This document shows positions 4,794 to 57,509 of a DNA stretch of 63,210 bases, in pieces; position 1 is the stretch's first letter, and each line of letters opens with the position of its first letter. The stretch spans positions 1 to 63,210 of the forward strand of contig JAGLWU010000020.1 of assembly GCA_023133275.1 (NCBI GenBank). Direction: 5' to 3'. The notes beneath the pieces were generated by a model. The model did not search any database. It had not been told where the DNA came from and saw only the letters and a program-made list of their open reading frames with translations. A program made the translations under genes and the position numbers. Source of the DNA: Candidatus Moraniibacteriota bacterium (GTDB lineage: Bacteria > Patescibacteriota > Minisyncoccia > Moranbacterales > GCA-2747515).

Positions 4794-4811
4794 AGCCCGT
4801 GCGGCGAGCAC
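4794..4811 (+). repeat. GC-box repeat, exact AGCCCGTGCGGCGAGCAC
   Basis: Exact 18-mer flanked by an A-run and a T-rich tract, between convergent genes. Confidence 0.9.
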
Positions 4812-4840
4812 TTTATTAAATTAAACTATTTAAAATTCAA

Positions 4841-4873
4841 AAAAAAGACTAGAAAATAACCTAGTCTTTTTTG
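4841..4873. terminator. bidirectional intrinsic terminator
   Basis: AAAAAAGACTAG-aaaataac-CTAGTCTTTTTT between the convergent 4296-4739 gene and the PBP1A gene. Confidence 0.7.
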
Positions 4874-4887
4874 TTATTTATAAGCAT

Positions 4888-7653
4888 TTAAGGGGTTGCT
4901 GGAGTTTCAGTTTTATCTTCTGTCTCAGGTTTAGGAATTGAAACTTTAACTTTTTTACTACTTTCCGCAGTATTTCCAGCAGAATCAGTAATTTTAACAC
5001 TAAAAGTTATTTCAGAACCATCTTTAGAATCAGGAATATCATATTCAACACTTTTATCTTTAGTTTCTTTAATTAAACTGCCGTCAGCAAAATATTCTAT
5101 TTTTTCCACGTCATAAGGACTATTTACATCAACTTTTATTTCCACTTTTTGCTCAGAAATTTTATCAGGCACAGAAATTTTTATTTCAGGTTTGTATTTA
5201 TCAAAATCATCTTTTTTACATTCATCAGGTTTTTCTTCAAAAATCATTTTAGAATCTTTTTCATAAAATTTCTTCACCCCTTTTTCCCAATTTTTATACT
5301 GAGGATCATCTTTAGCTTTTTCAGGTTTATCGCCTTGAGGATCATCTTTTTTTACATAGTAAAGAATATTGTGAATGTCGGCAAATTTTCTTTTTTTCCA
5401 TTTATCTTCAGGACAATATTTATTTGCCTCGCAATATTCATCATCTTTTCCAGGAATTTCACAAACTTCAATTTTTTCTGGTTCAGGTATTTCTCCATCT
5501 AAAATATCTTTTTTAGTTTCATTTTCATCTTTGTCATATTTTGGAAATTTTTCTCCGACAGAGTCTGAAAAAACTTCTAATAAAACTTTTCTAAAAATCG
5601 GTGCAGCGACAGCGGATCCACCGCCTGAATTACTCATTGAAGAATTGTCATTATTTCCACCCCACACACCAATGGCAATTTCAGGTGTGTAACCAATTGT
5701 CCAAGCATCTCGATTTTCATTTGTAGTTCCAGTTTTTGCAGCAACAGTGTTATCATCAAATTTCAAATCATTATTTTCTCCAAAAGCAGCAGATCGATAT
5801 TTATTATGAGAAAGCGAATGAGACAACATTGAAATATATTTTTCTTCAACAATTTTTTCTCCTTCATATTCTTCAACTTCTTCGAGAATTTCTCCATTTT
5901 TATCCTCCACTTTTAAAATTGAGCGTTTATCAAATTTAACACCATTATTTGCAAAAACGGAATAAGCGGCTACGTGGTCAACTAATTTAATTTCACCACC
6001 ACCTAAAACTAAAGATAATCCATAGCGATCAGGTTCGTTCAATCCAGTGATTCCTAATCTTTTCACAAAAGAAATCGTATCTTTTGGTCCAGCGAGGTAA
6101 AGAACTTTTACAGCAGGAATATTTAAAGACATTGAAAGGGCTTCTTTTAATTTTACTGGTCCACGAAAAGTTCCATCGTAATTTTGTGGTTCATACGGTT
6201 CACTGGCACCAGTTTCAAATTTAGTTTCCACATCGAAAATTATTGTTTCTGGAGTATAACCTTTTTCAAATGCGTGTAAATAAGCGTAAGGTTTGAAAGA
6301 AGACCCAGGTTGTCGTTCGCTTAAAGTTACATTAACTTGCCCGTCAATTTCTTCGTCGAAATAATCTCGAGATCCGATCATAGTTAAAATATCACCATTT
6401 TTTGGATCGATAGCGACTAAAGCAGCATTTTCGGCATTATATTTTTCTTTATTTTCTAAAGCAATTTCTTTTACAATTGCTTGTGCTTTTTCTTGTTTTT
6501 TCCAATCTAAAGTTGTGATAACTTTTAATCCATTTTTTTCTAAATATTCAGCTCCATATTTATCTTCTAAATATTCACGAACATAAAAAACGAAATGAGG
6601 TGCTTTTATATTTTCTCGATTCTTAGCTAATTTAACAAATACGTCCACATTTTTAGCTTCTGATGACTGTTCTGCAGAAATATAACCTAATTCTACCATA
6701 TTATTTAAAGTCTTTTCCTGACGCGATTTTAAATGTTCTCTATTATTTCCATAAGGAGACCATTTTGATGGAGCTTGAGGTAGTGAAGCTAGAATAGTTG
6801 CTTCGTCTAAAGTTAAATCTTTAGCGTTTTTATTGAAAAAAGTTTGAGCTGCTGCCTCGATTCCGTAAGCATTTGATCCATAAGGAATTTCATTTAAATA
6901 CATTCCGAGAATATCATCTTTTTCGAACTTCATTTCAATTTCTATCGCTAAAATTAATTCTTTGATTTTTCTTTCTATTCTTTTTTCATTTGTTAAGATT
7001 GAATTTTTTACAAATTGTTGAGTGATTGTTGAGCCTCCAACACTTTGTCCAATTCCGAAAACATTGGAAAGAATTGCTCGAATAAGTCCTTTTATGTCAA
7101 AACCGATGTGATGGTAAAAATTTTCATCTTCTAAAGCGACAGTGGCTTGTTTTACTATATCTGGAATTTCATCATGGGAAATAATTGTTCTTTTTTCTTC
7201 GCCGTGAATATCGTATAAAATTACTGTTCCAGTTCGGTCGTAAATTTTTGTGCTTTCGTCGATGGCTCTCATATTTACTTTTCCGGGTTCTGGTAAATCT
7301 TTGGCGATAAAAGCGAATATTCCGATTACGATAAATAATCCGACTAAAAATATAATTCCTGAGATTTTTAGGGTTTTTATGAAAATGGCTTTTTTATTTA
7401 GGTTTTGCCATTTGTATCTCATTTTGTCCCAGAAGTTTCCTCCGTTGAAATTGTTTTGTGGTTTTTGTTGTGGTCGGCGAGGGGTGTTTAGGGAATTGTG
7501 CTGGATTCGGTTGAATTTTTCGAATCGTTTTTCTCTTGTTTCTTTTTTATTGAAGGGGTTGGCTAGTTTGTTTTTTAGGCGACTGAAAAATCCACGGGGT
7601 TTTTGTTTGTGTGGTTTTCGGTGGAAATTTTTTGTTGTGAATGTGTTTCGCAT
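4888..7653 (-). CDS. mrcA: class A penicillin-binding protein (PBP1A: glycosyltransferase + transpeptidase) with C-terminal Ig-like extension
   Basis: Basic N-terminus plus TM helix. GT51 motifs (EDENFYHHIGFD, GGSTITQQ). Transpeptidase motifs (SSFKP, SLN, KTGTT). Confidence 0.9.
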   Translation of the reverse strand: MRNTFTTKNFHRKPHKQKPRGFFSRLKNKLANPFNKKETREKRFEKFNRIQHNSLNTPRRPQQKPQNNFNGGNFWDKMRYKWQNLNKKAIFIKTLKISGIIFLVGLFIVIGIFAFIAKDLPEPGKVNMRAIDESTKIYDRTGTVILYDIHGEEKRTIISHDEIPDIVKQATVALEDENFYHHIGFDIKGLIRAILSNVFGIGQSVGGSTITQQFVKNSILTNEKRIERKIKELILAIEIEMKFEKDDILGMYLNEIPYGSNAYGIEAAAQTFFNKNAKDLTLDEATILASLPQAPSKWSPYGNNREHLKSRQEKTLNNMVELGYISAEQSSEAKNVDVFVKLAKNRENIKAPHFVFYVREYLEDKYGAEYLEKNGLKVITTLDWKKQEKAQAIVKEIALENKEKYNAENAALVAIDPKNGDILTMIGSRDYFDEEIDGQVNVTLSERQPGSSFKPYAYLHAFEKGYTPETIIFDVETKFETGASEPYEPQNYDGTFRGPVKLKEALSMSLNIPAVKVLYLAGPKDTISFVKRLGITGLNEPDRYGLSLVLGGGEIKLVDHVAAYSVFANNGVKFDKRSILKVEDKNGEILEEVEEYEGEKIVEEKYISMLSHSLSHNKYRSAAFGENNDLKFDDNTVAAKTGTTNENRDAWTIGYTPEIAIGVWGGNNDNSSMSNSGGGSAVAAPIFRKVLLEVFSDSVGEKFPKYDKDENETKKDILDGEIPEPEKIEVCEIPGKDDEYCEANKYCPEDKWKKRKFADIHNILYYVKKDDPQGDKPEKAKDDPQYKNWEKGVKKFYEKDSKMIFEEKPDECKKDDFDKYKPEIKISVPDKISEQKVEIKVDVNSPYDVEKIEYFADGSLIKETKDKSVEYDIPDSKDGSEITFSVKITDSAGNTAESSKKVKVSIPKPETEDKTETPATP

Positions 7654-7721
7654 GGTACTTTTTGTTACTTGTAATGTTGTAATTTATTGTACTGCGAAAT
7701 GGAGGAGGAGTAAAGGTTAGT

Positions 7722-8576
7722 TTACTTTTTGCTTTTTTTGATTAAATAATCTATCATCATTCCAGAAATATCTATTCCTGTGAATTCTTGAGCCTTTGAA
7801 AAATTGCAAGGGAAATTTACTTCACTTACGTAAGGTTTATTATTTTTATCAATCATAATATCAACACCGCCAAATTCTATTCCTAAAGAATGAACAGCCT
7901 TAATAGCAATTTGATTTATTTCTTTAGGATATTCTTTAATTTCTTTTTTAATATTTATATTCAATCTAAATTCAGAGGAATGTTTTATATTACAAGTGCT
8001 TGCAATAACTTTATCACCTAAAACATTTATTCTAGCTTGTTCATTGTGATCTATAAACTCGCTTAATTTAAAATCTGTTTTGATATATTCAAATTTTTTT
8101 GAATTAAAAAAATCAATTATTGATATTAATGATTCCATACTATCTATTCTCATAACTCCAACACCATGACTTCCGCCCAAGGCTTTGATTACAATTGGAA
8201 AGCCTCCAAGATGCTCAACATACTTCTTTAGTAATTCTTTATTTTTTGGTAAATAATTTATTGTTTTAGGTATTGGTAGATTATTTTTATAATAAATTAT
8301 GTCTTGTAGATCTTTATTTATAAAGCTATAATCAGGATTTGTATAAAAAGAAGATACTTCTTCATTTAATAAAAAAGATTCTATAATTCGTGCCTTGCTT
8401 CCAGTTTTAACTCTATAAAATAAATCATTTTTTGTTAAATTTATTTTATTTGTAAAATTGAAATTTTCAACTTCTATTGGAATAAATTTTATATTTTTTT
8501 CTTCACATGATTTTTTTAAATATTTAAGGGATGTGTCGGTTGAATGTTTATTTTCTACTATACAATAAAAGCTCAT
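7722..8576 (-). CDS. RimK-like ATP-grasp ligase
   Basis: GGFPIVIKALGGSHGVGVMRI (ATP-binding Lys plus Gly loop), SEFID, ARINVLG, GGVDIM...YVSEVNFPC (E-x-N Mg site). Confidence 0.75.
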   Translation of the reverse strand: MSFYCIVENKHSTDTSLKYLKKSCEEKNIKFIPIEVENFNFTNKINLTKNDLFYRVKTGSKARIIESFLLNEEVSSFYTNPDYSFINKDLQDIIYYKNNLPIPKTINYLPKNKELLKKYVEHLGGFPIVIKALGGSHGVGVMRIDSMESLISIIDFFNSKKFEYIKTDFKLSEFIDHNEQARINVLGDKVIASTCNIKHSSEFRLNINIKKEIKEYPKEINQIAIKAVHSLGIEFGGVDIMIDKNNKPYVSEVNFPCNFSKAQEFTGIDISGMMIDYLIKKSKK

Positions 8577-8626
8577 ATTTTTTAAATAAGTGATTAATAG
8601 AATAAATTATAACATAAATTTGATTT

Positions 8627-9565
8627 TTAAGAAAAAATATTAGTTAAATCTTCATAAACTTTTATTGCAATCTTTTTATCTTCAGGTTTAAAAAGCATTC
8701 CTGGAGCAGAATTAAATTCAATTATCCATGGATTTTCTTTTTCATCAAACATAAGATCAATTGAATAATGTTTGTTTTCAAAAACTGAAAATAAATTATT
8801 TATATAATTAACTATTTCAATAATTTTGTCAGGCAAGTCTCTTGTATCGATTATAGTTTTGCTGCCACCTAATGAAACATTAGCTAATAAACTATCTTTT
8901 GGTGGTTGTCTGTAGTATGTATGAGAAATTTCATTATCTATCATTATAACTCTTAAATCATGCGTTCCTTTCATGATGTTTGGAATTCCATTTTTTGAAT
9001 TAATAAATTCTTGAACAATCCATGAATATGGAATGGTACTTTTTGAGATAAATTCACAAGTTTCTTTTTTATTTAAAATATGGATATCTCTTCCTCTGCT
9101 TAGGGTTGCAGGTTTTATAATAACTCTATTGCTCTTTAATAATGCAATCTCTTCAATATTTTTTTTATTTAAAATATTAATTTGTTTTTTTGTGTAAAAA
9201 GGTGCTAAAAAAGGCAAAAATCTTTTATTATCTAATAAAGTAGAAAAATCTAATGGATTTATGAATGGAAAAATATTTGCTAATTTTTGAACAATAGAGC
9301 CACATCTTTTCTCAGAAGTCAATTTATCAAAAATAACATCTGGTTTTATATTTTTGCATCTGATCCATTTACCATTTTTAAAACTCCAAGCGTGTGAAAA
9401 TATTTTATTTTCATCATTGAACCATTGATAAGAAGCTCTATATAATTTGATATCATTTTTATAAAAAGTCTCATACATCAATTCGTAAGAATATTTATAT
9501 GAGTCATCTGTAAAAACCTCTTCTTCCCATTTTTTTTTACCAAATAAGATCAGTGCTTTTTTCAT
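8627..9565 (-). CDS. ATP-grasp ligase, YheC/YheD- or TTL-like
   Basis: RVIIKPATLSRGRDIHIL, WIVQEFI, HDLRVIMID, SLGGSKT, YSIDLMFDEKENPWIIEFNSAPG. Confidence 0.65.
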   Translation of the reverse strand: MKKALILFGKKKWEEEVFTDDSYKYSYELMYETFYKNDIKLYRASYQWFNDENKIFSHAWSFKNGKWIRCKNIKPDVIFDKLTSEKRCGSIVQKLANIFPFINPLDFSTLLDNKRFLPFLAPFYTKKQINILNKKNIEEIALLKSNRVIIKPATLSRGRDIHILNKKETCEFISKSTIPYSWIVQEFINSKNGIPNIMKGTHDLRVIMIDNEISHTYYRQPPKDSLLANVSLGGSKTIIDTRDLPDKIIEIVNYINNLFSVFENKHYSIDLMFDEKENPWIIEFNSAPGMLFKPEDKKIAIKVYEDLTNIFS

Positions 9566-9569
9566 ATTT

Positions 9570-10508: not shown

Positions 10509-10549
10509 ATATATTTTTATTATTAAAATTTGAAAATATTTGTAAAAGT

Positions 10550-11959: not shown

Positions 11960-12072
11960 AATATTTAGATTTTTAGTATTTTAGACAATTAGACTCGTAG
12001 AAACGTAGTACTGCTACGTTTCAAATTTCAATTAGAAATTTATAAATTAATATTTTTCAAAAAGTACAGCCA

Positions 12073-12241
12073 GTCATTCTGAACGGATTTATTTTTTCTA
12101 ACAAAAAAATAAAGGAATAAAAAATCTCAATAAGTTTTTCTGATATTTTCACTTTACTAATTTCAAAGTTTAATATTTTTCCGCAGGGGATTCTTCACTT
12201 CATAAATTTTTTTACAAAAAATTTATTATGTTCAGAATGAC
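12073..12241. repeat. 169-bp palindromic (MITE-like) unit with inverted ends GTCATTCTGAACGG / (C)ATGTTCAGAATGAC
   Basis: The ends and inner segments (AAAGGAATAAAAAATCTC vs GGGGATTCTTCACTTC) are mutually complementary. A second full copy lies at 32442-32604, with half copies at 20436-20492 and 46922-46984. Confidence 0.75.
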
Positions 12242-12291
12242 AGTAAACTTTCAGAATTTCAACAAGGGGTCATGACCCCTTGTTTCAGAAA

Positions 12292-12309
12292 AGCCCGTGC
12301 GGCGAGCAC
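12292..12309 (+). repeat. GC-box repeat, exact
   Basis: AGCCCGTGCGGCGAGCAC, preceded by the 24-bp perfect palindrome at 12261-12284. Confidence 0.9.
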
Positions 12310-13692: not shown

Positions 13693-13710
13693 GTGCTCGC
13701 CGCACGGGCT
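13693..13710 (-). repeat. GC-box repeat, exact (reverse orientation)
   Basis: GTGCTCGCCGCACGGGCT, 20 nt upstream of the ruvC start codon. Confidence 0.9.
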
Positions 13711-20255: not shown

Positions 20256-20375
20256 TTGATTAAATTTAGACGAGTAAATTGGTAGATATTTAGACAATTA
20301 GATTTGTAAAAATGTTGTATTGTAATGTATTTAGATTTATAAATCAAACTTTTTTTATTCTTTCAAAAAATAATA

Positions 20376-20393
20376 GTGCTCGTCGCACGGGCT
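20376..20393 (-). repeat. GC-box repeat, 1 substitution
   Basis: GTGCTCGTCGCACGGGCT, whose reverse complement is AGCCCGTGCGACGAGCAC. Confidence 0.85.
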
Positions 20394-20435
20394 TTTTTGA
20401 AACCATAGTAATTTAAAACTCTCGTGATTTTCTGT

Positions 20436-20492
20436 GGGGGATTCTTCATTCCTTTATTTTTTTAAAGAAAAAATAAATCCGTTCAGAATGAC
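20436..20492. repeat. half copy of the palindromic unit
   Basis: GGGGGATTCTTCATTCCTTTATTTTTTTAAAGAAAAAATAAATCCGTTCAGAATGAC is the reverse of the left half of the 12073-12241 unit. Confidence 0.7.
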
Positions 20493-20564
20493 AGGAAATT
20501 TTAAAAAAACTTATTGGGATTATTGTACTCACAATACACTTTTATTCTTTCAGTATAACACCAC

Positions 20565-20599: not shown

Positions 20600-20848
20600 T
20601 TACATTAAAAATTTGTTAAATTTCTTTAGGAATTTTTGAAATATTAAATATTTTAAGTTCTAAAGAATTATAGTAATTTCAGGGCTGTGGGCATGTTTGG
20701 GCTTCTCTATCTTTTGGCCTAAATATTGGAAGTTTTCGTCCAGATTGGGTAAGGTGGTTTCGGCTGTGTTATTCCTCGACATTTCTTCTGCCTCATTTGC
20801 ATCATTGATCATTGAGTTTGTCTACAGCCCTGAAATTGTTATTTTTTG
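20600..20848 (+). ncRNA. candidate structured non-coding RNA (unclassified)
   Basis: Promoter just upstream. A perfect 14-bp closing helix AATTTCAGGGCTGT (20675-20688) / ACAGCCCTGAAATT (20824-20837) encloses about 135 nt of locally GC-enriched sequence and is followed by GTTATTTTTTG. No long ORF. Confidence 0.35.
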
Positions 20849-20946
20849 AAAAACGACTTTACTTTAAAGTTGTTTTTTTGTTTTTCAAGTTGACAAATTA
20901 TGAGGGGGGGTAAAATGTAAATATAATTTATTAAAATAAAAATATT

Positions 20947-29702: not shown

Positions 29703-29720
29703 AAGCCCGTGCGGCGAGCA
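29703..29720 (+). repeat. GC-box repeat, exact
   Basis: AGCCCGTGCGGCGAGCAC, 25 nt upstream of the 29745 start codon. Confidence 0.9.
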
Positions 29721-29744
29721 CTTTTTTAATTATTAAAATATTTT

Positions 29745-32334: not shown

Positions 32335-32340
32335 GGATAA

Positions 32341-32678
32341 ATTTTTAAACAATTAGACTTGTAGAAACGTAGCAATGCTACGTTTTGAATAGAGATTTAT
32401 AAATTAAAAATTTTCAAATAATACAGTTCGTCATTTTGTCTGTCATATCTGAACGGATTTATTTTTTCTTCAAAAAAATAAAGGAGTGAAGAATCTCGAT
32501 AAGTTTTTCTGGTATTTTAGTAATTTCAAAGTTTTGTGATTTTCCGCAGGGGATTCTTCACTGCATAAATTTATCTGCGATAAATTTATTACGTTCAAAA
32601 TGACAGCAAACTTGAATAACAAAAAATTTGAATGTTGAAATTTGTAGGGGTTTAAAATTTTAAATCCAAAAAGCCCGT
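32341..32678 (+). repeat. composite intergenic element, copy A2 (ends in a truncated GC box AGCCCGT)
   Basis: Collinear with 11961-12309. Includes the 163-bp palindromic unit at 32442-32604 and the reverse GTAG palindrome TGTAGGGGTTTAAAATTTTAAATCC. Confidence 0.85.
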
Positions 32679-32764
32679 ATTTGAAAATGTTTTGAAGATA
32701 TTAAAAAACCACCAATGAGAATTGGCGGTTTTTTATTTTATGAAACTCTTGCTTTTTATAGTTT

Positions 32765-33487
32765 TTATTCACATTCTTTTTCTTTGCACATTTCTTTTTC
32801 GTGTTTTAATTTTTCGTCAGCAACTTCTATTGTTCGATCAGCAAGAGTTCTTTTGGTGTATAAATTCATCAGAGAAAACATAACCATTGCGGCTAAAACT
32901 ATTCCGGCGATATTTATTAAAAACATAGCTAAAGCACTGGAAATTAAACTCATTTTAAAATGAGCGAGACCAATTCCGATGGTGGCTAGTGGTGGGACTA
33001 AAGTTATGGCAATGGCGGTTCCTGGCAAGGCTTCGTTTATGTCGGGTTTTACACGGGCGAAGGCGGTGGTTGCTCCAGCGATGACAGCAATTAATAAATA
33101 AACAATTGATGGGCTGGTTAGGAAATCTATTTGGGAATTGATGACATATTCTTTTCCTCCGCTTGTCCAAAGCAGCCAAGTTAAAATGAAAGATACTCCA
33201 ACACTAAAAACGATTGATTTTAGTAATACGTAAAATGATCGAGATATTAGTTTTCTGTCGTTCATGATTATTCCTAAGGCGAGAGACAAGACTGGTGAAA
33301 GTAGAGGAGCGATTAGCATTGAGGCGATGAGTACGGCGATGTTGTTGATTAGTAATCCGCAGGTTGCCATGGATACGGACATGATTACGAGGAAGAAGAA
33401 TGTTGGTCGTGGGGTTGAATCTTCGATTAGGTCTTTGATGGCTTCGATTTTGTTTTCTTCGTTTATGTTTTCGAATAGTAAACTCAT
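32765..33487 (-). CDS. DUF389-family integral membrane protein
   Basis: LIASMLIAPLLSPVLSLALGIIMND and multiple TM helices are typical of DUF389. Confidence 0.55.
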   Translation of the reverse strand: MSLLFENINEENKIEAIKDLIEDSTPRPTFFFLVIMSVSMATCGLLINNIAVLIASMLIAPLLSPVLSLALGIIMNDRKLISRSFYVLLKSIVFSVGVSFILTWLLWTSGGKEYVINSQIDFLTSPSIVYLLIAVIAGATTAFARVKPDINEALPGTAIAITLVPPLATIGIGLAHFKMSLISSALAMFLINIAGIVLAAMVMFSLMNLYTKRTLADRTIEVADEKLKHEKEMCKEKECE

Positions 33488-33689
33488 AATAATAGACTTT
33501 TAGATTGTTAGATTTGTAGAGATATTGTATTGTAATGTTTTTTTGAATTATAATTTTATTATAACATAAAGATTTTTGTTAGGAATTGGTTATTAAAATT
33601 TGTGGGGGCAGTGCCTTGTGCTTACTTATGCGGTGAATGAAAAGTTTTACGATGAGGGCGATTACGAGGGATCGCCCCTATTATTATAT

Positions 33690-33707
33690 AGCCCGTGCGG
33701 CGAGCAC
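33690..33707 (+). repeat. GC-box repeat, exact
   Basis: AGCCCGTGCGGCGAGCAC, preceded by the hairpin GGGCGATtacgaggATCGCCC. Confidence 0.9.
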
Positions 33708-38185: not shown

Positions 38186-38863
38186 ATGAAAAAAACTACA
38201 CAACAATTAAAAAAATACCACTCACCAAAAGTCTACAAAATCAAAGACAAAATCAATTTTATCATAACCGCAATATTACTACTAGAAATAGCCTTCGCAC
38301 TTTTCCGCACCGAATGGACAATTTTATTCATCACAATCATAACACTCGTTCTAATTTCCTCAGTCCAATTTTTCACAAAAAAAACACAAAGTTACATTTA
38401 CATACCAGAAGAGTTTCAAATCGCAACCGTTCTTTTTATTTTCGCAACCTTATTTCTTGGAGAAATTCACGGATATTACGAAAGCTTTTGGTGGTGGGAT
38501 TTAGTTTTGCACACAGGTTCTGCGGTTGTTTTTGGATTTGTTGGATTTATTATTTTACTAGTTTTACAAAGAGGAGGACGAGTTGAGGCAAAAGCATTAT
38601 GGTTGGCAATTTTTTCTTTCGCATTTGCGATGGCGATTGGTGTTGTGTGGGAAATTTTTGAATTCACAGCTGATCAACTTTTTAATTTAAACATGCAAAA
38701 GTCTGGTTTAACTGATACAATGTGGGATTTGATAGTAAATGCTTTAGGTGCATTATTTGCATCATTTGTTGGATTTTTATATTTAAAAGGCGAAGACAAG
38801 TTTTCTTTTTCAGTTTTGATAGATAGATTTATTAAAAATAATCCCCAATTTTTTAAAGAGTAA
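38186..38863 (+). CDS. integral membrane protein, YjdF/DUF2238-like
   Basis: Six predicted TM helices. WEIFEFTADQ...DTMWDLIVNALGALFA resembles the YjdF E.IEW...D.W D...D....GA signature. Confidence 0.45.
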   Translation: MKKTTQQLKKYHSPKVYKIKDKINFIITAILLLEIAFALFRTEWTILFITIITLVLISSVQFFTKKTQSYIYIPEEFQIATVLFIFATLFLGEIHGYYESFWWWDLVLHTGSAVVFGFVGFIILLVLQRGGRVEAKALWLAIFSFAFAMAIGVVWEIFEFTADQLFNLNMQKSGLTDTMWDLIVNALGALFASFVGFLYLKGEDKFSFSVLIDRFIKNNPQFFKE

Positions 38864-38865
38864 AA

Positions 38866-38947
38866 ATAGATGAGTAGAATGGTAGATTTTTAGACAATTA
38901 GATCTGTAGAACAGTAGACTTGTAGAAATGTTGCATTGTAACGTTTT
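38866..38947 (+). repeat. phased TAGA array plus GTAG-headed hairpin
   Basis: TAGATGAGTAGAATGGTAGATTTTTAGACAATTAGATCTGTAGAACAGTAGACTTGTAGAAATGTTGCATTGTAACGTTTT, with TAGA every 8-9 nt. The hairpin needs G.U pairs available only in plus-strand RNA. Confidence 0.75.
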
Positions 38948-40489: not shown

Positions 40490-40585
40490 GTAGGAAACGC
40501 ATATATGCGTTCCCTACTACGAAATGAAGGAATATTTTAGAATTTCGAAAAATGTTGAATGGTGAAAAGTCCGTGCGGCGAGCAC
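40490..40585 (+). repeat. GTAG palindrome + conserved linker + GC box (copy C1; box has 1 substitution)
   Basis: GTAGGAAACGCATATATGCGTTCCCTAC, then ..GAATGAAGGAATATTTTAGAATTTCGAAAAATGTTGAATGGTGAAA, then AGTCCGTGCGGCGAGCAC (40568-40585). Confidence 0.85.
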
Positions 40586-41820: not shown

Positions 41821-41868
41821 GTGCTCGCCGCACGGGCTTTTCGGGTTTGCCAGTGGCAAACCCCTACA
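41821..41868 (-). repeat. GC box (exact, reverse) + palindrome GGGTTTGCCAGTGGCAAACCC + CTACA
   Basis: GTGCTCGCCGCACGGGCTTTTCGGGTTTGCCAGTGGCAAACCCCTACAG. The box lies 26 nt upstream of the 41795 start codon. Confidence 0.9.
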
Positions 41869-45668: not shown

Positions 45669-45764
45669 GTAGTGAACGCACATGTGCGTTCACTACTACA
45701 GAATGAAAGAATGTTTTAGAATTTCGAAAAATGTTAAATGGTAGAAAGCCCGTGCGGCGAGCAC
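45669..45764 (+). repeat. GTAG palindrome + conserved linker + GC box (copy C2, box exact)
   Basis: Perfect 28-bp palindrome GTAGTGAACGCACATGTGCGTTCACTAC, then the linker ..GAATGAAAGAATGTTTTAGAATTTCGAAAAATGTTAAATGGTAGAA, then the box at 45747-45764. Confidence 0.9.
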
Positions 45765-46727: not shown

Positions 46728-46904
46728 GTATCCTGCTGAAAGATATAATTTGTTTAAGGGCAGAGCGTTTGAATACAAATTAATCTATTCAGTATTTACA
46801 CTTTAAGTTTAAAGAAAATTTAAAGTGGATCTTTCTTTCGAGATCCTGAATAAATTATTTAATTTTTCTGCGAAAACTAAAATAATTTTTCAGGATGATG
46901 TGAG
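46728..46904 (+). repeat. about 177-bp intergenic repeat, copy B1
   Basis: Collinear with 49665-49843. Shared segments: ...ATATAATTTGTT.AAG.GC.GAGCG.TTGAATACAAATTAAT...ACACTTTAAGTTT.AAGAAA...GATCCTGAATAAATTATTT.ATTTTTCTGCGAAAA.TAAAATAATTTTTCAGGATGAT. Confidence 0.85.
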
Positions 46905-46921
46905 TTGGGAGTTTTATGTTT

Positions 46922-46984
46922 TTCCGTTCGGGATTCTTCACTTAATAAATTTATCTGCGATAAATTTATTCTGTTTAGAATGAC
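46922..46984. repeat. right-half copy of the palindromic unit
   Basis: TTCCGTTCGGGATTCTTCACTTAATAAATTTATCTGCGATAAATTTATTCTGTTTAGAATGAC is nearly identical to 32541-32604. Confidence 0.8.
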
Positions 46985-47030
46985 AGGGAAACTTAAAGTA
47001 TCTTTAAATAATTTTGATTTGTAAAATATT

Positions 47031-47630
47031 ATGGCAAAAAAACGTGTGCGACATCATGTGAATCCTTTAGCGGATTTAACAGAATATTCATTTCAGGGAT
47101 TTGAAAATAATAATCCTATTATTATTGATGTGGGGGCGGATCATGGTGAATTTATTGAGGGATTATTGAAAAAATTTAGTGATGAGAAAAATTTTATTGT
47201 TTTTGAAATTCGTAAACCTTTGGCGGAAAAATTGAGGGAAAAATTTTCAGAATATAAAAATGTGATTGTTTTTGATGGTGATGCAAATCGTAATTTTGAA
47301 AATATTGTTCGACCTTGTTTAGAAAAATCTGAAGTTGAAGAAATTTATGTTAATTTTCCTGACCCTTGGTTTAAGGCTCGACACAAGAAACGGCGTTTTG
47401 TGAATGAGGGTTTTTTGCAGTCAATTAAAGATTGGATGTCGAGTTCAACGGAGTGGATTTTTCAAACGGATCAGAAAAAGTTGTTTGAGGATACTTTGGA
47501 GGTTTTGGAAAATGTTGGGATTGATAGGATTGAGTTTTTTAAAAATTCTCTTTATGATTTGCAAACTAAGTGGGAAAAGGCTAAGATTAAAGAAGATTCA
47601 GAAATTTATCGGATGAGGTTTAAAATTTAG
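47031..47630 (+). CDS. trmB: tRNA (guanine-N7)-methyltransferase
   Basis: IIDVGADHGEF and NFPDPWFKARHKKRRF, the TrmB signature. Confidence 0.9.
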   Translation: MAKKRVRHHVNPLADLTEYSFQGFENNNPIIIDVGADHGEFIEGLLKKFSDEKNFIVFEIRKPLAEKLREKFSEYKNVIVFDGDANRNFENIVRPCLEKSEVEEIYVNFPDPWFKARHKKRRFVNEGFLQSIKDWMSSSTEWIFQTDQKKLFEDTLEVLENVGIDRIEFFKNSLYDLQTKWEKAKIKEDSEIYRMRFKI

Positions 47631-47698
47631 ATTGGTAGATTTTTAGATTAGTAGATGATTAGGCTTGTAAAACTTACTGAAATTACTACGTCATTTTT

Positions 47699-47791
47699 GG
47701 GTTGAAAATTTTTAACCCCTACATTGCAATGATGAGGATGTTTTAGAATTTCAAAAAATGTTGAATGGTGGAAAGCCCGTGCGGCGAGCAC
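47699..47791 (+). repeat. palindrome-CTACA + conserved linker + GC box (copy C3, box exact)
   Basis: GGGTTGAAAATTTTTAACCCCTACA, then ..GATGAGGATGTTTTAGAATTTCAAAAAATGTTGAATGGTGGAA, then the box at 47774-47791. Confidence 0.9.
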
Positions 47792-49664: not shown

Positions 49665-49871
49665 GTCATGCTGGAAAATATAATTTGTTCAAGAGCGAAG
49701 CGATTGAATACAAATTAATTTATTTAGTATCTACACTTTAAGTTTGAAGAAAGCTAAAAGCAGGTCTTTCTTCCTAGATCCTGAATAAATTATTTCATTT
49801 TTCTGCGAAAATTAAAATAATTTTTCAGGATGATATAAATGAGAAGTCGTGGAAGCCCGTGTGGCTAGCAC
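49665..49871 (+). repeat. intergenic repeat copy B2 followed by a GC box (2 substitutions, 49854-49871)
   Basis: See B1. The box AGCCCGTGTGGCTAGCAC ends 5 nt from the sufB stop codon. The element fills the sufB-sufD spacer. Confidence 0.85.
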
Positions 49872-49875
49872 TTTT

Positions 49876-51868: not shown

Positions 51869-51885
51869 ATGATTAATATTAATAA

Positions 51886-52605: not shown

Positions 52606-52933
52606 AAGTTAGTTTTTAGTTAGTAGAAAGTAGCTAATAGGTTTTTAGAAAGGTGTGTCATTTTGGATATGGTGAAAGGGTCATTTTTTGTAATGATGTG
52701 CCTTCTTTTATTTAAAGGGTTTTTTGGGAATTGGTCAAGGCTTGACAAGATGATGATGATGATGTATGCTTAGCTGTTATGGTATGAGATTAATTTAATT
52801 TCTATTGTAACTTGTTCTTTGAATGAATTGAAATGTGCTTCTTTTGTCAATTATGTTTTTTAGAGTTTTTTAGAAGATATAATTTGACAAGTAGAAGTAT
52901 ATTTTTAATTTTTTGTCCTAGGAGGGCAATATT

Positions 52934-53329
52934 ATGACAAAAGCAATTCTTTTCTTTTTTCTGGCAATTTTTATGACTCTCGTTTCTTTTTCTGCCGTTG
53001 GGGCAGAGGAGAAATGTTTTACTAAAGATGTCTTGCGGTTGGAGTTATTGACGGGAGAAAAACCCTCATGTTGGATAAAAAAAGAACAGGAGGAGGCTGA
53101 AAGGAGAGAAGATAAATTTTGGGAAAAATTTTATCAGATTCTGGAGAATGAATCGGAGAACTCTAGGCCTAGGATGGTTAGCTTGAGATTTATGAAAGAG
53201 TTGGAAGAAAATTACAGAAGTATTTGTAATGATATAGAGGGGATACTTTCTGGAAGTTTTCTAACAGAAAAACAAAGAAAAGATTTAATAAGTTTAAGAT
53301 CTTTTTTTTGTGAAGATCCAGCGGAATAA
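52934..53329 (+). CDS. small secreted protein
   Basis: Signal peptide AILFFFLAIFMTLVSFSAVGA. AGGAGG Shine-Dalgarno 8 nt upstream. Confidence 0.5.
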   Translation: MTKAILFFFLAIFMTLVSFSAVGAEEKCFTKDVLRLELLTGEKPSCWIKKEQEEAERREDKFWEKFYQILENESENSRPRMVSLRFMKELEENYRSICNDIEGILSGSFLTEKQRKDLISLRSFFCEDPAE

Positions 53330-53336
53330 TCCGCAA

Positions 53337-53387
53337 AAAGACCGGTTGACTAAATGCGTTTACGCTTTAGAGTCATCGGTCTTTTTT
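53337..53387 (+). terminator. intrinsic terminator
   Basis: AAAGACCGGTTGAC ... GTCATCGGTCTTTTTT. Confidence 0.6.
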
Positions 53388-53445
53388 AAATTGTCTAAAA
53401 ATTCTATGGTAAAATAAAAAAGAAATAAATTTTAAAAATAATCTT

Positions 53446-54495
53446 ATGCAAAAAATAAATTTAGCAGTAATTTTTGGAGGAAAATCTGGAGAACATGAAA
53501 TTTCACTTTCATCTGCTCGAGGAGTAATCAGTTCGTTAAATAAAGAAAAATACAACATTCAACATTTAGCCATAACCAAAAAAGGACAGTGGCTCGCAGG
53601 ACAAGAAGCTGAACAATATTTAGAATTAACTGAAAAGTTTAAAATAAATAGTGAAGAAGTAGAAAAACTAATTTCCGAAAGCAAAAAGGATGGATTAGAA
53701 ATTTTAATTAAAAAAGAAATTGATGGAGAAAAAATCGATGTGATTTTACCGATTTTGCACGGACCTTTTGGAGAGGATGGAAAACTTCAGGGAATGTTAG
53801 AAATAATTAATTTACCTTATATTTTTTCAAAACCTTTAGCTCATGCAATTGCCATGAATAAACCGAAAGCTAAAATTATTGCAGAACATGTGGGAGTTTT
53901 GACAGCTAACAGTTTTTCGTTTAATAAAAAAGATGAACTTGATGTGAATGAAATTATTGATGAATTAGATTTTCCAATTGTGGTAAAACCAGCGGAATTG
54001 GGTTCTTCTGTTGGGATGACGCTTGCAAAAAATGAAAAAGATTTGAAAGCAGGAATTAAAAAGGCTTTTGCGGTAGATGAAAATATTATTTTGGAGCGAT
54101 TTATTTCAGGGCGGGAAATGACGGTTCCTGTGGCGGATATTAAAAAACCTGAGGCAGTGGCGGTTATGGAAATTATTGCACAGAAAGTAGAGTGGTATGA
54201 TTACAATTCAAAGTATGAGGAGGGTGGTAGTCGGCATGTTTGTCCAGCGGAAATTCCTGAGGAAGTTGAACAAAAATTGAAAGAGCAGGCAGTGAGAATT
54301 TTTCAGGAAATTGGTTGTCGAGATTTGGCACGAGCGGATTTTATTTGGGATGATGAGAATGATCAAATTTATTTTTTGGAAATTAATACGATTCCAGGGA
54401 TGACGCCGACGAGTTTGGCTCCAGAAACAATTCAGAAAAATGGAATGGAGTTGGGTGATTTTTTGGATAAATTAATTGAGAAACGTTTGGGTTAG
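53446..54495 (+). CDS. ddl: D-alanine--D-alanine ligase
   Basis: INLAVIFGGKSGEHEISLSSA, LHGPFGEDGKLQG, PIVVKPAELGSSVG, LEINTIPGMT. Confidence 0.9.
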   Translation: MQKINLAVIFGGKSGEHEISLSSARGVISSLNKEKYNIQHLAITKKGQWLAGQEAEQYLELTEKFKINSEEVEKLISESKKDGLEILIKKEIDGEKIDVILPILHGPFGEDGKLQGMLEIINLPYIFSKPLAHAIAMNKPKAKIIAEHVGVLTANSFSFNKKDELDVNEIIDELDFPIVVKPAELGSSVGMTLAKNEKDLKAGIKKAFAVDENIILERFISGREMTVPVADIKKPEAVAVMEIIAQKVEWYDYNSKYEEGGSRHVCPAEIPEEVEQKLKEQAVRIFQEIGCRDLARADFIWDDENDQIYFLEINTIPGMTPTSLAPETIQKNGMELGDFLDKLIEKRLG

Positions 54496-54531
54496 TTTTT
54501 GAATAAGAGGACATGACCTCTTATTCATTTT

Positions 54532-54562
54532 AAAAAGCAAGATTTACTTCTTGCTTTTTTTT
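54532..54562 (+). terminator. intrinsic terminator after ddl
   Basis: GCAAGA-tttact-TCTTGC followed by T8. It is preceded by a second hairpin, GAATAAGAGGacatgaCCTCTTATTC, at 54501-54526. Confidence 0.7.
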
Positions 54563-54573
54563 GATTAATTTTT

Positions 54574-54621
54574 GTGTTCGTCGCACGAGCTTTTGGGTTT
54601 GCCAGTAGCAAACCCCTACAA
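54574..54621 (-). repeat. GC box (3 substitutions, reverse) + palindrome GGGTTTGCCAGTAGCAAACCC + CTACA
   Basis: GTGTTCGTCGCACGAGCTTTTGGGTTTGCCAGTAGCAAACCCCTACAA. Confidence 0.8.
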
Positions 54622-54681
54622 ACAAACTTTTAATTTATCGCAGGGTAGGTGCAAAGCACTGTCCTTACAAAATTGAAAAAT

Positions 54682-54996
54682 TTAATTTAAAATAAGTTGT
54701 AAATTATTTTTTGTGGAATATTTTTTTAATGAATTTTTGATTGATTCTTTTGCGTCGGTGTAAATTCTGATTTCTTGGATACTAGCGGTTCCGCGGATTT
54801 TTAGTAATAATCCACTTTCCATTTCGCTAACTTTGATAGCGTGTTTTCCGCTTTTAATTCCGTGTTTAATAAATCCAACAGAAATTTTTTTGACTTCTGG
54901 ATTTTTACTTAATAAATCTACAATTTTTTCAGCAACAGGGATTATAGTGGTGTGTCGTCCTTTTATTTTTCCGCCTTGTCGGTGTCCTTTTGACAT
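54682..54996 (-). CDS. small basic hypothetical protein (104 aa)
   Basis: MSKGHRQGGKIKGRHTTIIP... No family assigned with confidence. The gene is bracketed by inverted GC boxes at 54574 and 55071. Confidence 0.5.
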   Translation of the reverse strand: MSKGHRQGGKIKGRHTTIIPVAEKIVDLLSKNPEVKKISVGFIKHGIKSGKHAIKVSEMESGLLLKIRGTASIQEIRIYTDAKESIKNSLKKYSTKNNLQLILN

Positions 54997-55070
54997 AATT
55001 ATTTTTTCAAAAATTTATTTCTTGCTTCGTTATATTTTTTATAAACTAATTTAATTCTTTAAAATTTAAA

Positions 55071-55088
55071 AGCCCGTGCGACGAGTGC
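55071..55088 (+). repeat. GC-box repeat, 3 substitutions
   Basis: AGCCCGTGCGACGAGTGC, 13 nt from the stop of the 55101-56162 gene. Confidence 0.8.
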
Positions 55089-55100
55089 TTTTTTATTGGC

Positions 55101-56162
55101 TTAAAAATTACTACAATCCAATGAAAAATCACCTTCAGTATTATTTTTTATAACATTGTCTTTATGCTTAATGACAGATGAAAAAAAAGGACGAACTTTT
55201 TTTGGAGGACTTTTATGTCTGGCACAGCGAATACCAAATCTTTCATTATTTTTAATGGAATTATTTTTAATAGTAATTTCTCCAATTCCTTCAGCAGTTA
55301 GCAAAGCAATTCCACTTCTTAAATTATTTTCAATTTTGTTGTTTTCTATAATTAAAATATTATCTTCGATTTCTGACTCTACACCACTTTCACCATTACT
55401 TATAATTTCGTTATTTTTTATTTTTGCGTACATGTGCGGATGAAAGTCGATACCTTCTTCGCCATTATTAATTATTTTTGAATTTTCAATTTCAATATGA
55501 CCATCTTTTAGATATAGACCTTGTTTCCTGCTACTTTGAATAATAGAATGACTGATTCTAACTAGGGGTAATTTTTCTAATTCTTTTTTTGTTTTATTTA
55601 AAATGACTTCTTTGGCAATTTCGTTTTCGTAATATTCTCGATTTTCGGTAGCTTCCATTTTTAATCCATATTTTGAGCAATTGGAAATATTTGTATTTAT
55701 TATTTTTGTGGCGGTGTTAAATGGTATATAAATCCCGATGTGTCCATTGTTGATATTTAAATTTATTAAATTTGTATTATTGGAAACGGTGATGGTGTTG
55801 CTTATTTCTATGTTTGGATTATTGATGTTAACTTTTTTTTCTTTATTTATCTCTCCGATTAAAGTAGTATTTTTAGGAATAATTAAAACCTCCTGATATT
55901 CTCCATTTGAAATTATAATTGTCCAATTTTTTTCTAAAGATTTCTCGTTTCTTTTATTGAGAGCTTCTTGTATAGTTTGAAAAGGATAATTAATTGAACC
56001 TGTTTTTAATTCGTTATTTTTATTTTGATCGACGAATATTGTTTGAGCGATATTTTTTTCTAAATCGTTTGGGTATTTTTTTTCTAAGTAATTTTTTGTA
56101 GGGAAGAATGCTATTATTCCTAATATTATATATAGTATTATTCTAATGAAAGATGTTTTCAT
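55101..56162 (-). CDS. secreted right-handed beta-helix repeat protein (pectin-lyase fold / NosD-like)
   Basis: N-terminal signal/TM. Repeated I.NN.I.NN...GI units, for example IENNKIENNLRSGIAL and IKNNSIKNNERFGIRC. Confidence 0.65.
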   Translation of the reverse strand: MKTSFIRIILYIILGIIAFFPTKNYLEKKYPNDLEKNIAQTIFVDQNKNNELKTGSINYPFQTIQEALNKRNEKSLEKNWTIIISNGEYQEVLIIPKNTTLIGEINKEKKVNINNPNIEISNTITVSNNTNLINLNINNGHIGIYIPFNTATKIINTNISNCSKYGLKMEATENREYYENEIAKEVILNKTKKELEKLPLVRISHSIIQSSRKQGLYLKDGHIEIENSKIINNGEEGIDFHPHMYAKIKNNEIISNGESGVESEIEDNILIIENNKIENNLRSGIALLTAEGIGEITIKNNSIKNNERFGIRCARHKSPPKKVRPFFSSVIKHKDNVIKNNTEGDFSLDCSNF

Positions 56163-56289
56163 GTTTTTGATTTTTAAGGTAAATTAGGTTTTTTTCTATT
56201 ACTTTTATTATATGATTAATTTGATGTTTTGTCTATTTATCAATTTTAAAATGTGTTAAGATAGACTTAAGATTAAAAATAATATTATT

Positions 56290-56916
56290 ATGAACAAAAA
56301 AACCAAAGCAGTAATTTTTGATTTTGACGGGGTAATTGCGGATACTTTTGAATTTCATCGAAAGCATTTTAAAAAATATTTAAATTTATCTTTATCAAAA
56401 AAAGAATATCAAAATTTACATAAAGGAAATGTTTTCGATGGTAAAGACTTGAATGACAAAGAAAAAATAATTAGTGAAAATTTAGTTAAATATTTTAAAT
56501 TTATTGAAAAAGATCATCATAACGTAAAATCTTTTAAGAGAATAAATGCTTTGTTGAAGATGTTAAATGAAAAATATAATCTTTTTATTATTACTTCAAG
56601 TAGCAAGGTAAATATTATAAATTTTTTGAAAAGAGAAAATGTGTTTGACTGTTTCACAGAAATTTTGGGAGTTGAATTTGATAAGTCTAAAGTTGTGAAA
56701 TTTAATTATATTCTTGAAAAATATAAATTGGAAAAGGATGATGTTTTGTTTGTGACTGATACTTCTGGGGATGTGTTTGAGGCGAATAAGGTTGGTGTTA
56801 AATCGATTGCGGTTACTTGGGGTTTTCATGATCGAGAAATTTTGGCGGAGAGTGAGCCGTTTGCTTATGCGGATGATGTGGAGAAGGTTTTGGAAATAGT
56901 TGAGAGTAATCTATAA
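56290..56916 (+). CDS. HAD-superfamily hydrolase
   Basis: AVIFDFDGVIADT (motif I), IITSS (motif II), FVTDTSGD (motif IV region). Confidence 0.8.
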   Translation: MNKKTKAVIFDFDGVIADTFEFHRKHFKKYLNLSLSKKEYQNLHKGNVFDGKDLNDKEKIISENLVKYFKFIEKDHHNVKSFKRINALLKMLNEKYNLFIITSSSKVNIINFLKRENVFDCFTEILGVEFDKSKVVKFNYILEKYKLEKDDVLFVTDTSGDVFEANKVGVKSIAVTWGFHDREILAESEPFAYADDVEKVLEIVESNL

Positions 56917-56927
56917 GGAATAATTTT

Positions 56928-57509
56928 ATGCAAGAAAATAATTCAGAAGAAAAAACAATTAAGAGACCTTGGCAGGCGAATGCTTGGGTTGGAATAATAG
57001 CTTTATTATTTTTTGTTACTAGTAGTAGATTTTTGTTTTGGGATATAAGGCTTAATGATGTTTATGAGCCTAGTATTAATTATTTTAGTCACTTTATTTC
57101 AGATGTAACTTTAGCATTTTCTTTGTTTGTTAATCCATTTTCTATTATTTTTCTATTTTTAAAAATGATTGATTATGGAAATGGTTCGGTTTTTATTTCT
57201 ATTTTCGTTTTGCTTTTTCTTTTTATTTTTTTAATGAAGGGACTTTTAAAAGGGATTAAAAGTTTTGTTTGGATAGTTATATTTATTTCGTTTATTAGAT
57301 TTTCTTTTTTAATTTATTTTTTATTTAAAGAGTATTCAGATTTTGAACATCTATATTATCTTTTCTATACTCCGTTATTATTTTCTTTATTGTTTGTTTT
57401 TTTGATACTTCTTTCATATCTTGAAATATCTTGTCTAAAACATCCATTTTACAATCAAAAAAAGTTGAACAGAAAAGTTAAAAAGCCCGTGCAGCGAGTA
57501 CTTTTTTGA
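56928..57509 (+). CDS. hypothetical polytopic membrane protein
   Basis: 193 aa with 5 hydrophobic helices. The last 9 codons (KKPVQRVLF) are encoded by a GC-box repeat. Confidence 0.45.
   Translation: MQENNSEEKTIKRPWQANAWVGIIALLFFVTSSRFLFWDIRLNDVYEPSINYFSHFISDVTLAFSLFVNPFSIIFLFLKMIDYGNGSVFISIFVLLFLFIFLMKGLLKGIKSFVWIVIFISFIRFSFLIYFLFKEYSDFEHLYYLFYTPLLFSLLFVFLILLSYLEISCLKHPFYNQKKLNRKVKKPVQRVLF
57484..57501 (+). repeat. GC-box repeat, 2 substitutions, inside the 3' end of an ORF
   Basis: AGCCCGTGCAGCGAGTAC followed by TTTTTTGA, which supplies the stop codon. Confidence 0.8.

Follow-up and report, generated by a model that had tools for sequence, protein, structure and literature searches.

Positions 1 to 63,210 of contig JAGLWU010000020.1 (assembly GCA_023133275.1), from a Candidatus Moraniibacteriota bacterium and referred to here as the window, contain 14 copies of an 18-nt GC-rich box, AGCCCGTGCGGCGAGCAC, in DNA with a GC content of about 30%. 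Tentatively, and with somewhat less than even confidence, we consider the box to be the invariant, strand-polar end-module of short non-autonomous intergenic elements, organised as mosaics like those of repetitive extragenic palindromes (REPs) and bacterial interspersed mosaic elements (BIMEs), and handled as single-stranded DNA, probably by Y1 HUH enzymes. Across the window and a sister genome, the box is present in high copy number, is excluded from gene interiors, follows replication in its polarity, bounds a sharp-edged turnover of the DNA on one of its sides and forms sub-families; the sister genome also encodes two REP-associated tyrosine transposases (RAYTs) whose genes are flanked by a GTAG hairpin and a box. 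An earlier sequence-only reading of the window described the box and overlooked that it is polar with replication, that homology breaks off sharply on one of its sides and that other phyla have the same 18-mer.

Copy number, placement and flanks of the box

A scan of the window allowing up to three mismatches returns 14 copies, of which eight are exact, two have one mismatch, two have two and two have three, in agreement with the eight identical and six variant copies (one to three substitutions) counted by the sequence-only reading. Its coordinates were right for all copies but one, which starts at 29704 rather than 29703, and the truncated copy that it placed near 32672 is real (AAAAAGCCCGT at 32671-32678, with the first seven bases of the box kept). 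Its distances from boxes to gene ends hold to within 1 nt, and its gene names are upheld by Pfam, which identifies RuvC, RuvB, Exo_endo_phos (xth-like), an MMR_HSR1 GTPase (engB-like), the exonuclease VII large subunit, SufB, Ddl, PBP1A, a beta-helix protein, a 7TM protein, SpoU/TrmH and DHH. The copies are the following, the side next to position 1 of the box being called its A side and the other its T side:

4794-4811, plus strand: exact box, T side 76 nt from the 3' end of the PBP1A gene, past that gene's own terminator
12292-12309, plus strand: exact box between two minus-strand genes, oriented against them and with replication
13693-13710, minus strand: exact box 19 nt upstream of ruvC, with a GTAG-type hairpin abutting the A side (repeat family D12)
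20376-20393, minus strand: box with one mismatch (G11A), 120 nt upstream of ruvB; sister ortholog at L024:5458
29704-29721, plus strand: exact box 23 nt upstream of trmH; exact box at the same site in four species
32672-32678, plus strand: truncated box (AGCCCGT), A-side GTAG hairpin still attached
33690-33707, plus strand: exact box 375 nt upstream of the polynucleotide phosphorylase (PNPase) gene; ortholog at L042:3642
40568-40585, plus strand: box with one mismatch (C3T), 16 nt from the 3' end of a DHH gene
41821-41838, minus strand: exact box just upstream of a DHH gene promoter (TTGACA-17-TACCAT), conserved in L093
45747-45764, plus strand: exact box 112 nt upstream of the xth-like gene, terminating a 97-nt composite (repeat family D6)
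47774-47791, plus strand: exact box 57 nt upstream of the engB-like gene, terminating a D6 composite
49854-49871, plus strand: box with two mismatches, 4 nt from the sufB stop codon and against the flanking genes; ortholog at L004:1112
54574-54591, minus strand: box with three mismatches, past the ddl terminator; the sister ortholog carries a 21-nt hairpin insertion
55071-55088, plus strand: box with three mismatches; the beta-helix gene has its 3' end 12 nt away
57484-57501, plus strand: box with two mismatches, overlapping the last codons of the open reading frame (ORF) at 56928-57509 and 96 nt upstream of xseA

The boxes are confined to the intergenic share of the window, about 16% of its length, and keep out of gene interiors (no copy), yet about 82% of the DNA is coding. 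The copy at 57484 is the only one that touches a gene, where nucleotides 57484-57509 encode the C-terminal residues ..KSPCSEYFF*; in the sister genome a box possibly supplies an N-terminal extension, MSTPKSPCGEH.. (L036:4282-4314). An A-run and a T-run had been proposed to frame each copy. The A-run is indeed general, with A at positions -1 to +1 in 67-84 of 84 copies, whereas the T-run is no more than a tendency: the T side starts with A in roughly half of all copies, including 4 of the window's 14. No match to the box was obtained in 100 dinucleotide-preserving shuffles of the window, so that its 14 copies stand against an expectation of zero.

Relatives that carry the box

The window locus corresponds to ENA ERZ23498665 scaffold_119 and to NCBI DAOVMA010000002.1; three independent assemblies of it are identical, and no recent insertions are therefore visible by strain comparison. 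When one genome per GTDB species was scanned, many copies of the box were found only in the metagenome-assembled genome (MAG) "Candidatus Moraniibacteriota bacterium HOU_bin.0114," which is that of a sister species and not the source of the window, their genes being 80-92% identical and differing at 31% of 4-fold degenerate sites. The 352 kb retrieved from this sister genome contain at least 72 boxes, 56 of them exact. Logan contigs L093 and L101, from two more species with TrmH proteins about 80% identical, also bear an exact box upstream of trmH, which brings to four the species in which this copy is exact. In the few kb examined for each relative with a TrmH identity of 75% or less, neither the box nor an analogue was found, and the more distant Moraniibacteriota sequences L094, L095, L098, L099 and L100 likewise yielded no analogue. 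The third species lacks the box in two intergenic regions of L093, namely those matching the window boxes at 33690 and at 40568, the latter region being only about 58 nt long.

An assembly or contamination artefact, or a chance effect of composition, can be regarded as refuted. Contigs L093 and L101 do begin at a box, and one junction, at L093:50, could be a k-mer chimera; against this stand the shuffles, the identity of the locus in three independent assemblies and the recurrence of the box at orthologous sites in four species from different samples.

Replication sets the orientation of the box

The window starts some 0.5 to 3.8 kb to the right of dnaA-dnaN (L102:5697-8925) and of an intergenic region rich in DnaA boxes, several of them resembling TTATCCACA, and its start probably adjoins oriC. 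This position is the ground for treating its plus strand as the leading one. A gene for DciA is present at 3884-4177.

In the window and the sister genome together, 67 of 81 boxes have their forward sequence on the leading strand (on the lagging-strand template; p = 2e-9). Between tandem genes of the leading strand, the box is both leading-oriented and co-oriented with the genes in 36 of 39 cases, whereas between tandem genes of the lagging strand it is leading-oriented in 8 of 10 cases and co-oriented with the genes in 2 of 10. The two classes of gene pairs do not differ in leading-strand placement (Fisher test, p = 0.27) but differ in gene co-orientation (p = 1.4e-5), which indicates that replication, and not transcription, sets the orientation of the box. 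In the sister genome, this orientation tracks GC skew and replication arm and reverses at the GC-skew switch of contig 5. On the window's own contig, only one copy lies to the left of the putative origin, and across the dnaA/DnaA-box region it has the opposite orientation to the majority on the right. Other modules of the same intergenic regions are polar as well (TAGA repeats 21:3 over both genomes, module E 14:1), and the period-8 TAGAnnnn repeats, which place a stop codon in each of the three frames, nearly always occupy the leading strand regardless of gene strand. An orientation bias toward the lagging-strand template, which the box shows independently of gene strand (67:14), is typical of the ends of insertion sequences (ISs) of the IS200/IS605 type.

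The same polarity bears on the speculation that the box is a DNA uptake sequence for a type IV pilus or competence machinery, which we find unsupported and highly improbable. Like DNA uptake sequences (DUS) and uptake signal sequences (USS), the box is an over-represented oligomer common to sister species; several of its neighbours are DNA-repair genes, and it contains GTGCGG, as does the Haemophilus USS. DUS and USS, however, are non-polar, dense and also intragenic, whereas the box, 18-21 nt long, is extragenic, strongly strand-polar, present about once per 4.5-5 kb and physically tied to mobile modules. Uptake of double-stranded DNA would explain neither this polarity nor the recombination-like edge on the A side that is described below.

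Intergenic mosaics and turnover at the A side

In the intergenic regions, a few types of module combine into mosaics. The origin-proximal end usually has TAGAnnnn repeats and hairpins of the GTAG...CTAC type, the latter being perfect palindromes, and the terminus-proximal end has the box; other modules include long hairpins of the GGATTCTTCAC...GTTCAGAATGAC type and a module centred on TTTCGAAA. Every module keeps one fixed orientation relative to the box, so that module order and orientation have the defined character of BIMEs, in which REPs are combined with conserved non-REP motifs. The placement of the other modules on the A-run side, noted in the sequence-only reading, is confirmed over 81 boxes of both genomes, with A:T side counts of 19:2, 12:1, 9:0 and 9:0 for four module types, and the long-hairpin module is on the A side wherever both occur. 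The main modules of the window, given with plus-strand coordinates, are:

40490-40567: A-side composite of a GTAG hairpin and a AGAATTTCGAAAAATGTT module (family D6), abutting the box; also at 45669-45746 and 47696-47773
12153-12250: 98-nt long-hairpin module GGGGATTCTTCAC...GTTCAGAATGACAG (family D2); also at 20404-20501, 32516-32613 and 46896-46993
38858-38947: period-8 TAGAnnnn repeats followed by a GTAGAAA..TTTC hairpin (families D4, D7, D10 and D15), at the origin-proximal end of a mosaic
Further TAGAnnnn repeats: 11974-12048, 20258-20331, 32338-32412, 33468-33541, 47619-47685, 59215-59255 and 62910-62950

At orthologous sites (eight shared by the window and the sister genome, and the sites of L093 and L101), identity over the box and its T flank is 76-95% wherever an alignment is possible, the A side is unalignable, and the break falls within about 1 nt of position 1 of the box. 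Among the 144 positions compared between orthologous boxes, 8 differ, always through a change in the window copy, while divergence at 4-fold degenerate sites is 31%; the sequence of the box is thus maintained, and such strong conservation calls for a sequence reader. Copying of boxes is evident from sequence variants that dispersed sister copies share (C5T in four, a GA-to-AG swap in three) and from a 21-nt palindrome nested between GCGAG and CAC in about ten sister boxes. This palindrome, CCTGCCTGT(T)CGGCAGACAGG, also occupies fixed spots in both arms of the long hairpins and is absent from the window; examples in the sister genome are at L074:1000-1030, L004:5850-5960 and L079:5100-5210. At L093:50, the A flank of box 57484 meets the T flank of box 29704; this junction would be due either to rearrangement at the box or to chimeric k-mer assembly.

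Two orthologous regions differ by larger segments. The sister counterpart (L017:5831-6483) of window 32335-32764 has a full box followed by a TTGACC-17-TATTAT promoter and a tRNA gene, which is also present in a neighbouring intergenic region of L093 (L093:2862-3696); the tRNA gene is missing from the window, leaving the truncated box at 32672. An insertion of 4.4 kb in the sister genome (L042:1-3641), which includes a sortase-like ORF and a Cys/Asp-rich repeat protein, lies on the A side of the ortholog of box 33690.

The sequence-only reading offered a terminal module of REP/BIME-like or miniature inverted-repeat transposable element (MITE)-like elements. The former part is favoured by the fixed-order mosaics with GTAG hairpins, the shared sub-families and the sister RAYTs, with the correction that the box itself is no REP. 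The latter part fails, as there are neither terminal inverted repeats nor target duplications, and the nearest inverted pairs of boxes are 0.5-1.4 kb apart and enclose genes.

It also offered a sequence-specific protein-binding site, which fits the data, the very strong conservation at orthologous sites calling for a reader, and which partly overlaps with the REP/BIME-like reading. As a host-selected cis-acting site, this is the main rival; we judge it rather unlikely as the explanation, and it may hold at the same time as the favoured one. The box would be bound, as double- or single-stranded DNA, by a putative chromosomal protein and would act as a boundary or insulator or as a replication-polar signal, with purifying selection at each site and modules piling up on the unconstrained side. 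Such a site would account for the low divergence of orthologous boxes, with no difference on the sister side, for the trmH-upstream copy that is exact in four species, for the tracking of replication, for the same 18-mer being kept in non-coding DNA of other phyla, and for the position of the box, always at the outer edge of a promoter region or past a gene end or terminator. By contrast, the shared sub-family variants and the identical nested insertion look like copying and not like independent maintenance, and a break exactly at the edge of the box in every orthologous pair is not predicted by a mere lack of constraint at 31% divergence. The distance to promoters also varies, no candidate reader protein was found, and the known polar motifs KOPS (FtsK orienting polar sequences) and Chi are shorter and intragenic.

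RAYT genes and a possible mechanism

A search for RAYT genes, which the sequence-only reading had suggested, was positive in the sister genome, where each of two genes has a box downstream:

L033:7222-7764, minus strand: RAYT1, sister genome
L053:6547-7140, plus strand: RAYT2, sister genome

Their products score 29.3 and 34 bits with Pfam Y1_Tnp (cut-off 23) and 79.6 and 70 bits with NCBIfam REP_Tyr_transpos (cut-off 80), that is, at or just below the threshold of the latter. The two paralogs are 46% identical to each other and 57-66% identical to their nearest database relatives. Just upstream of each gene is a GTAG...CTAC hairpin, and a co-oriented box follows 18 or 151 nt downstream. The hairpin upstream of the L033 gene resembles a GTAG REP located beside a 63%-identical RAYT in another lineage (L097).

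RAYT enzymes act on single-stranded DNA only, cleave between C and T around REPs and in linkers, and generate BIME variants by strand exchange (PMC3333891), and Y1 enzymes favour the lagging-strand template (PMC6006769); this published biochemistry matches the polarity of the box and the shuffling of its modules. Under the mechanism that we propose, the box would lie on the lagging-strand template and become transiently single-stranded, in which state it would be read by a sequence-specific enzyme of single-stranded DNA, the best candidate being an HUH Y1 transposase of the RAYT type. The A-side edge of the box, between the C and the T of GGGCT on the bottom strand, would be the joint where GTAG hairpins and other modules are added, exchanged and lost, while the box and the T-side DNA (a promoter region or a gene 3' end) would stay in place. 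We infer that this joint is a site of cleavage and strand transfer, which would correspond to the C/T cleavage of RAYTs, and recognition by a RAYT or another protein would be what keeps the sequence of the box invariant.

Folding and RNA-level readings

The box may be read as a very small hairpin, GTGC and GCAC enclosing a 5-nt loop, with a conserved 5' tail, (AAA)AGCCC. Weak support comes from the variants: all indels fall in the loop, and 6 of the 7 non-consensus cells of the stem still pair as forward-strand G-U, so that 97.9% of cells are paired. An alternative stem, GCCCG/CGAGC, was rejected, only 78% of its cells being paired. Over the whole box, C-to-T changes outnumber G-to-A changes by about 11 to 5, a bias that could equally be mutational and therefore does not discriminate between RNA and DNA. 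Folding is no better than that of shuffled sequences (-5.7 and -6.2 kcal/mol on the two strands, z from -0.09 to -0.35). A promoter at a fixed distance past the box was also considered and rejected, as only 18 of 58 copies are followed by a 9/12 sigma-70-like match, at +6 to +74.

The box could alternatively act in RNA, as a weak and possibly bidirectional terminator or as a hairpin that protects mRNA or marks its 3'-end processing, a role in 3'-end protection and processing having been described for the REPs of E. coli. We consider this quite unlikely. It would suit a small GC hairpin set between an A-run and an often T-rich run, the G-U compatibility of most stem substitutions, the 27 of 85 copies whose T side is near a gene 3' end (in some, the stop codon is 3-16 nt away and no other hairpin intervenes), and an unrelated genome (L008) in which the 18-mer is part of a perfect 9-bp hairpin. 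On the other hand, the folding energies and the terminator consensus scan, which flags only two variant copies, back the earlier statement that the box is not a normal terminator: it has no stable stem, half of its copies lack an immediate T-run, and its orientation tracks replication and not the flanking genes. The organism has ordinary terminators with AT-rich stems, some of which sit between a gene and a box. Furthermore, 11 copies lie between divergent genes, many are 19-31 nt upstream of a start codon, where efficient termination would silence the gene, and 18 invariant nucleotides far exceed the needs of a hairpin. Gathering-score and permissive Rfam scans gave no match at the boxes, the composites or the copies in other phyla; in the window, only two tRNA-Ser genes reach the gathering score.

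Copies of the 18-mer in other phyla

Identical copies of the 18-mer are found in DNA that appears to be non-coding in Actinomycetota, Elusimicrobium posterum, an Oscillospiraceae MAG and an Acidobacteriota MAG (contigs L029, L039, L045, L055, L062, L037, L007, L054, L076 and L008). In Actinomycetota it is part of a unit of about 45-51 nt, GCGCGAGCGNAGCGAG..CC followed by the box and TGTC/GGTG, located between a stop and a start codon and containing a mini-ORF (..RERSE.QPVRRA.., read by eye) that overlaps both. Tandem copies are found in L062, L007 and L054; the genomes with tandem copies are a Propionibacteriaceae MAG, the Oscillospiraceae MAG (two copies, upstream of an upp-like gene) and the Acidobacteriota MAG (three). 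In JGI metagenomes, the exact box with A/T flanks gave no match, and a loop-degenerate pattern gave single matches, some with GGCTC or GGCAA loops. These loop variants adjoin start codons in Bacteroidota-like gut contigs. For instance, AAAAAGCCCGTGCGGCTCGCAC lies 1-2 nt upstream of the ATGAC starts of genes unrelated to one another (leuS, an atpC-like gene and a prophage gene), sometimes with a second, degenerate copy 48 nt upstream (gut metagenome and viral contigs L118, L142, L152, L163, L173, L183 and L225-L227). Viral contigs gave only chance, coding or Bacteroidota-like prophage matches, plasmid and E. coli collections no informative match, and a literature search by sequence string nothing relevant. 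No RAYT was found within the few kb examined around the copies in other phyla.

Some of the scattered single matches that the scan of GTDB species also gave are not due to chance. By our estimate, tens to hundreds of exact 18-mers of this composition are to be expected by chance in 596 Gb; a recurring partner motif, tandem copies and low-GC contexts are not. A wider reading, in our view unlikely, is that AGCCCGTGCGGC(GA)GCAC is the core of an undescribed cross-phylum family of intergenic or intercistronic elements, spanning the candidate phyla radiation (CPR), Actinomycetota, Elusimicrobium, Firmicutes, Acidobacteriota and Bacteroidota-like gut contigs. It would be read as a small tailed hairpin by a widely shared putative factor and, in this CPR genus, would have risen to hundreds of copies and come to act as a joint or boundary that is polar with replication and selected at individual sites.

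Weighing against known systems

Several observations weigh against the box being an end-module of REP/BIME-like mosaics. The box itself is not a REP palindrome, a stable hairpin of 20-40 nt with GT[AG]G at its 5' foot, since its best stems are 4-5 bp and AGCCC stands 5' of the small stem; many boxes are solitary, with no recognisable module beside them. No RAYT was found in the 72.7 kb examined of the window's own genome, and no RAYT ortholog above 66% identity in the protein database, including the other box-bearing species. In the DNA examined from other genera, RAYT relatives of 63-65% identity are not accompanied by a box, and the only contig with a repeat there, L097, carries GTAG REPs, which indicates that a RAYT can do without the box. 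Were the box purely selfish, its copies should decay; conservation at orthologous sites far above the neutral level instead points to a host function or some homogenising process. Finally, the distribution of the 18-mer across phyla is not explained by the REP/BIME reading, nor would a lineage-specific transposon end predict it; judged from these sequences, the copies argue for a constraint broader than the transposon of one genus. The REP-like properties that do apply are extragenic location and high copy number (14 window and 72 sister copies, with gene interiors free), and the stable hairpins are supplied by the neighbouring GTAG...CTAC modules, GTAG being also found in the hairpins that flank the RAYT genes.

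The closest known parallel is provided by the BIMEs and RAYT (TnpA-REP) of E. coli, which are also extragenic, high-copy mosaics of conserved modules with GTAG-tagged hairpins (PMC3333891; PMC6006769). Repeats flank Y1 transposase genes in the sister genome as in E. coli, variants would here likewise arise through exchange at module joints, and in both systems the elements are placed at gene 3' ends and between genes. Unlike BIMEs, the mosaics described here are anchored by an almost non-palindromic 18-mer that lacks GTAG and is more invariant than the adjacent hairpins, strongly replication-polar and kept at orthologous sites although neutral positions have diverged by 31%; the DNA examined around RAYT relatives of other genera has no box, and the host is a CPR bacterium of about 1.2 Mb. 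With the ends of IS200/IS605 elements and of their miniature derivatives, the palindrome-associated transposable elements (PATEs), the mosaics have in common two dissimilar ends (here TAGA/GTAG and the box), the lack of inverted terminal repeats and of target duplication, an orientation bias of the kind that insertion into the lagging-strand template would produce and, in the sister genome, a Y1 HUH enzyme (PMC6006769). They differ in the tiny hairpin of the box, in the persistence of the box when the rest of the "element" is replaced and in the many boxes that stand alone; nor was a full-length IS with such ends seen. The T-side flanks reveal no fixed target beyond A/T richness, the box has a 4-bp stem only, and the strand observed here is not cleanly reconciled with the rule established for IS608, whose insertions occur 3' of a short target in the active strand.

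Other repeat systems are more distant. In the neisserial dRS3/RS mosaics and Correia elements, too, short and highly conserved repeats separate variable intergenic blocks and mark sites of rearrangement (the possible chimera at L093:50 may be compared), but dRS3 is a 20-bp inverted repeat used by phage integrases, whereas the box is asymmetric and no link to an integrase was found. Mycobacterial interspersed repetitive units (MIRUs), compared by description only, recall the Actinomycetota units of about 45-51 nt between stop and start codons, sometimes in tandem and with a mini-ORF overlapping both; the window copies, unlike these, are neither tandem nor translationally coupled. KOPS and Chi resemble the box as over-represented oligomers that are common to related species and polar with respect to replication, and are motifs of 5-8 bases that are mostly intragenic.

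Genomes of CPR bacteria (Patescibacteria) are regarded as streamlined, and our literature searches returned no description of REP/BIME-type mosaics or RAYTs among them. Here, a genome of about 1.2 Mb spends much of its intergenic DNA on polar mosaics anchored by one invariant 18-mer. The replication-set polarity, the nucleotide-sharp boundary between stable and replaced DNA, and the near-perfect conservation at orthologous sites are unusual for REP-like DNA and make the box system a concrete substrate for studying how Y1 HUH enzymes, or another reader, build and maintain repeats. If the copies in other phyla were related, the box would point to a widely shared and unrecognised small element.

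Other features of the window

Two features that are separate from the box were observed in the window. At 20640-20900 on the plus strand, a non-coding RNA-like gene has a TTGACA-17-TAGTAT promoter and its own terminator and, unlike the rest of its intergenic region, is well kept in the sister genome; its folding z-score is modest (-1.6), and Rfam contains no match to it. Downstream of xseA, a conserved 70-aa ORF (59371-59583, plus strand), which falls below the 80-aa filter applied to ORFs, has a weak Pfam match to the exonuclease VII small subunit and is thus xseB-like.

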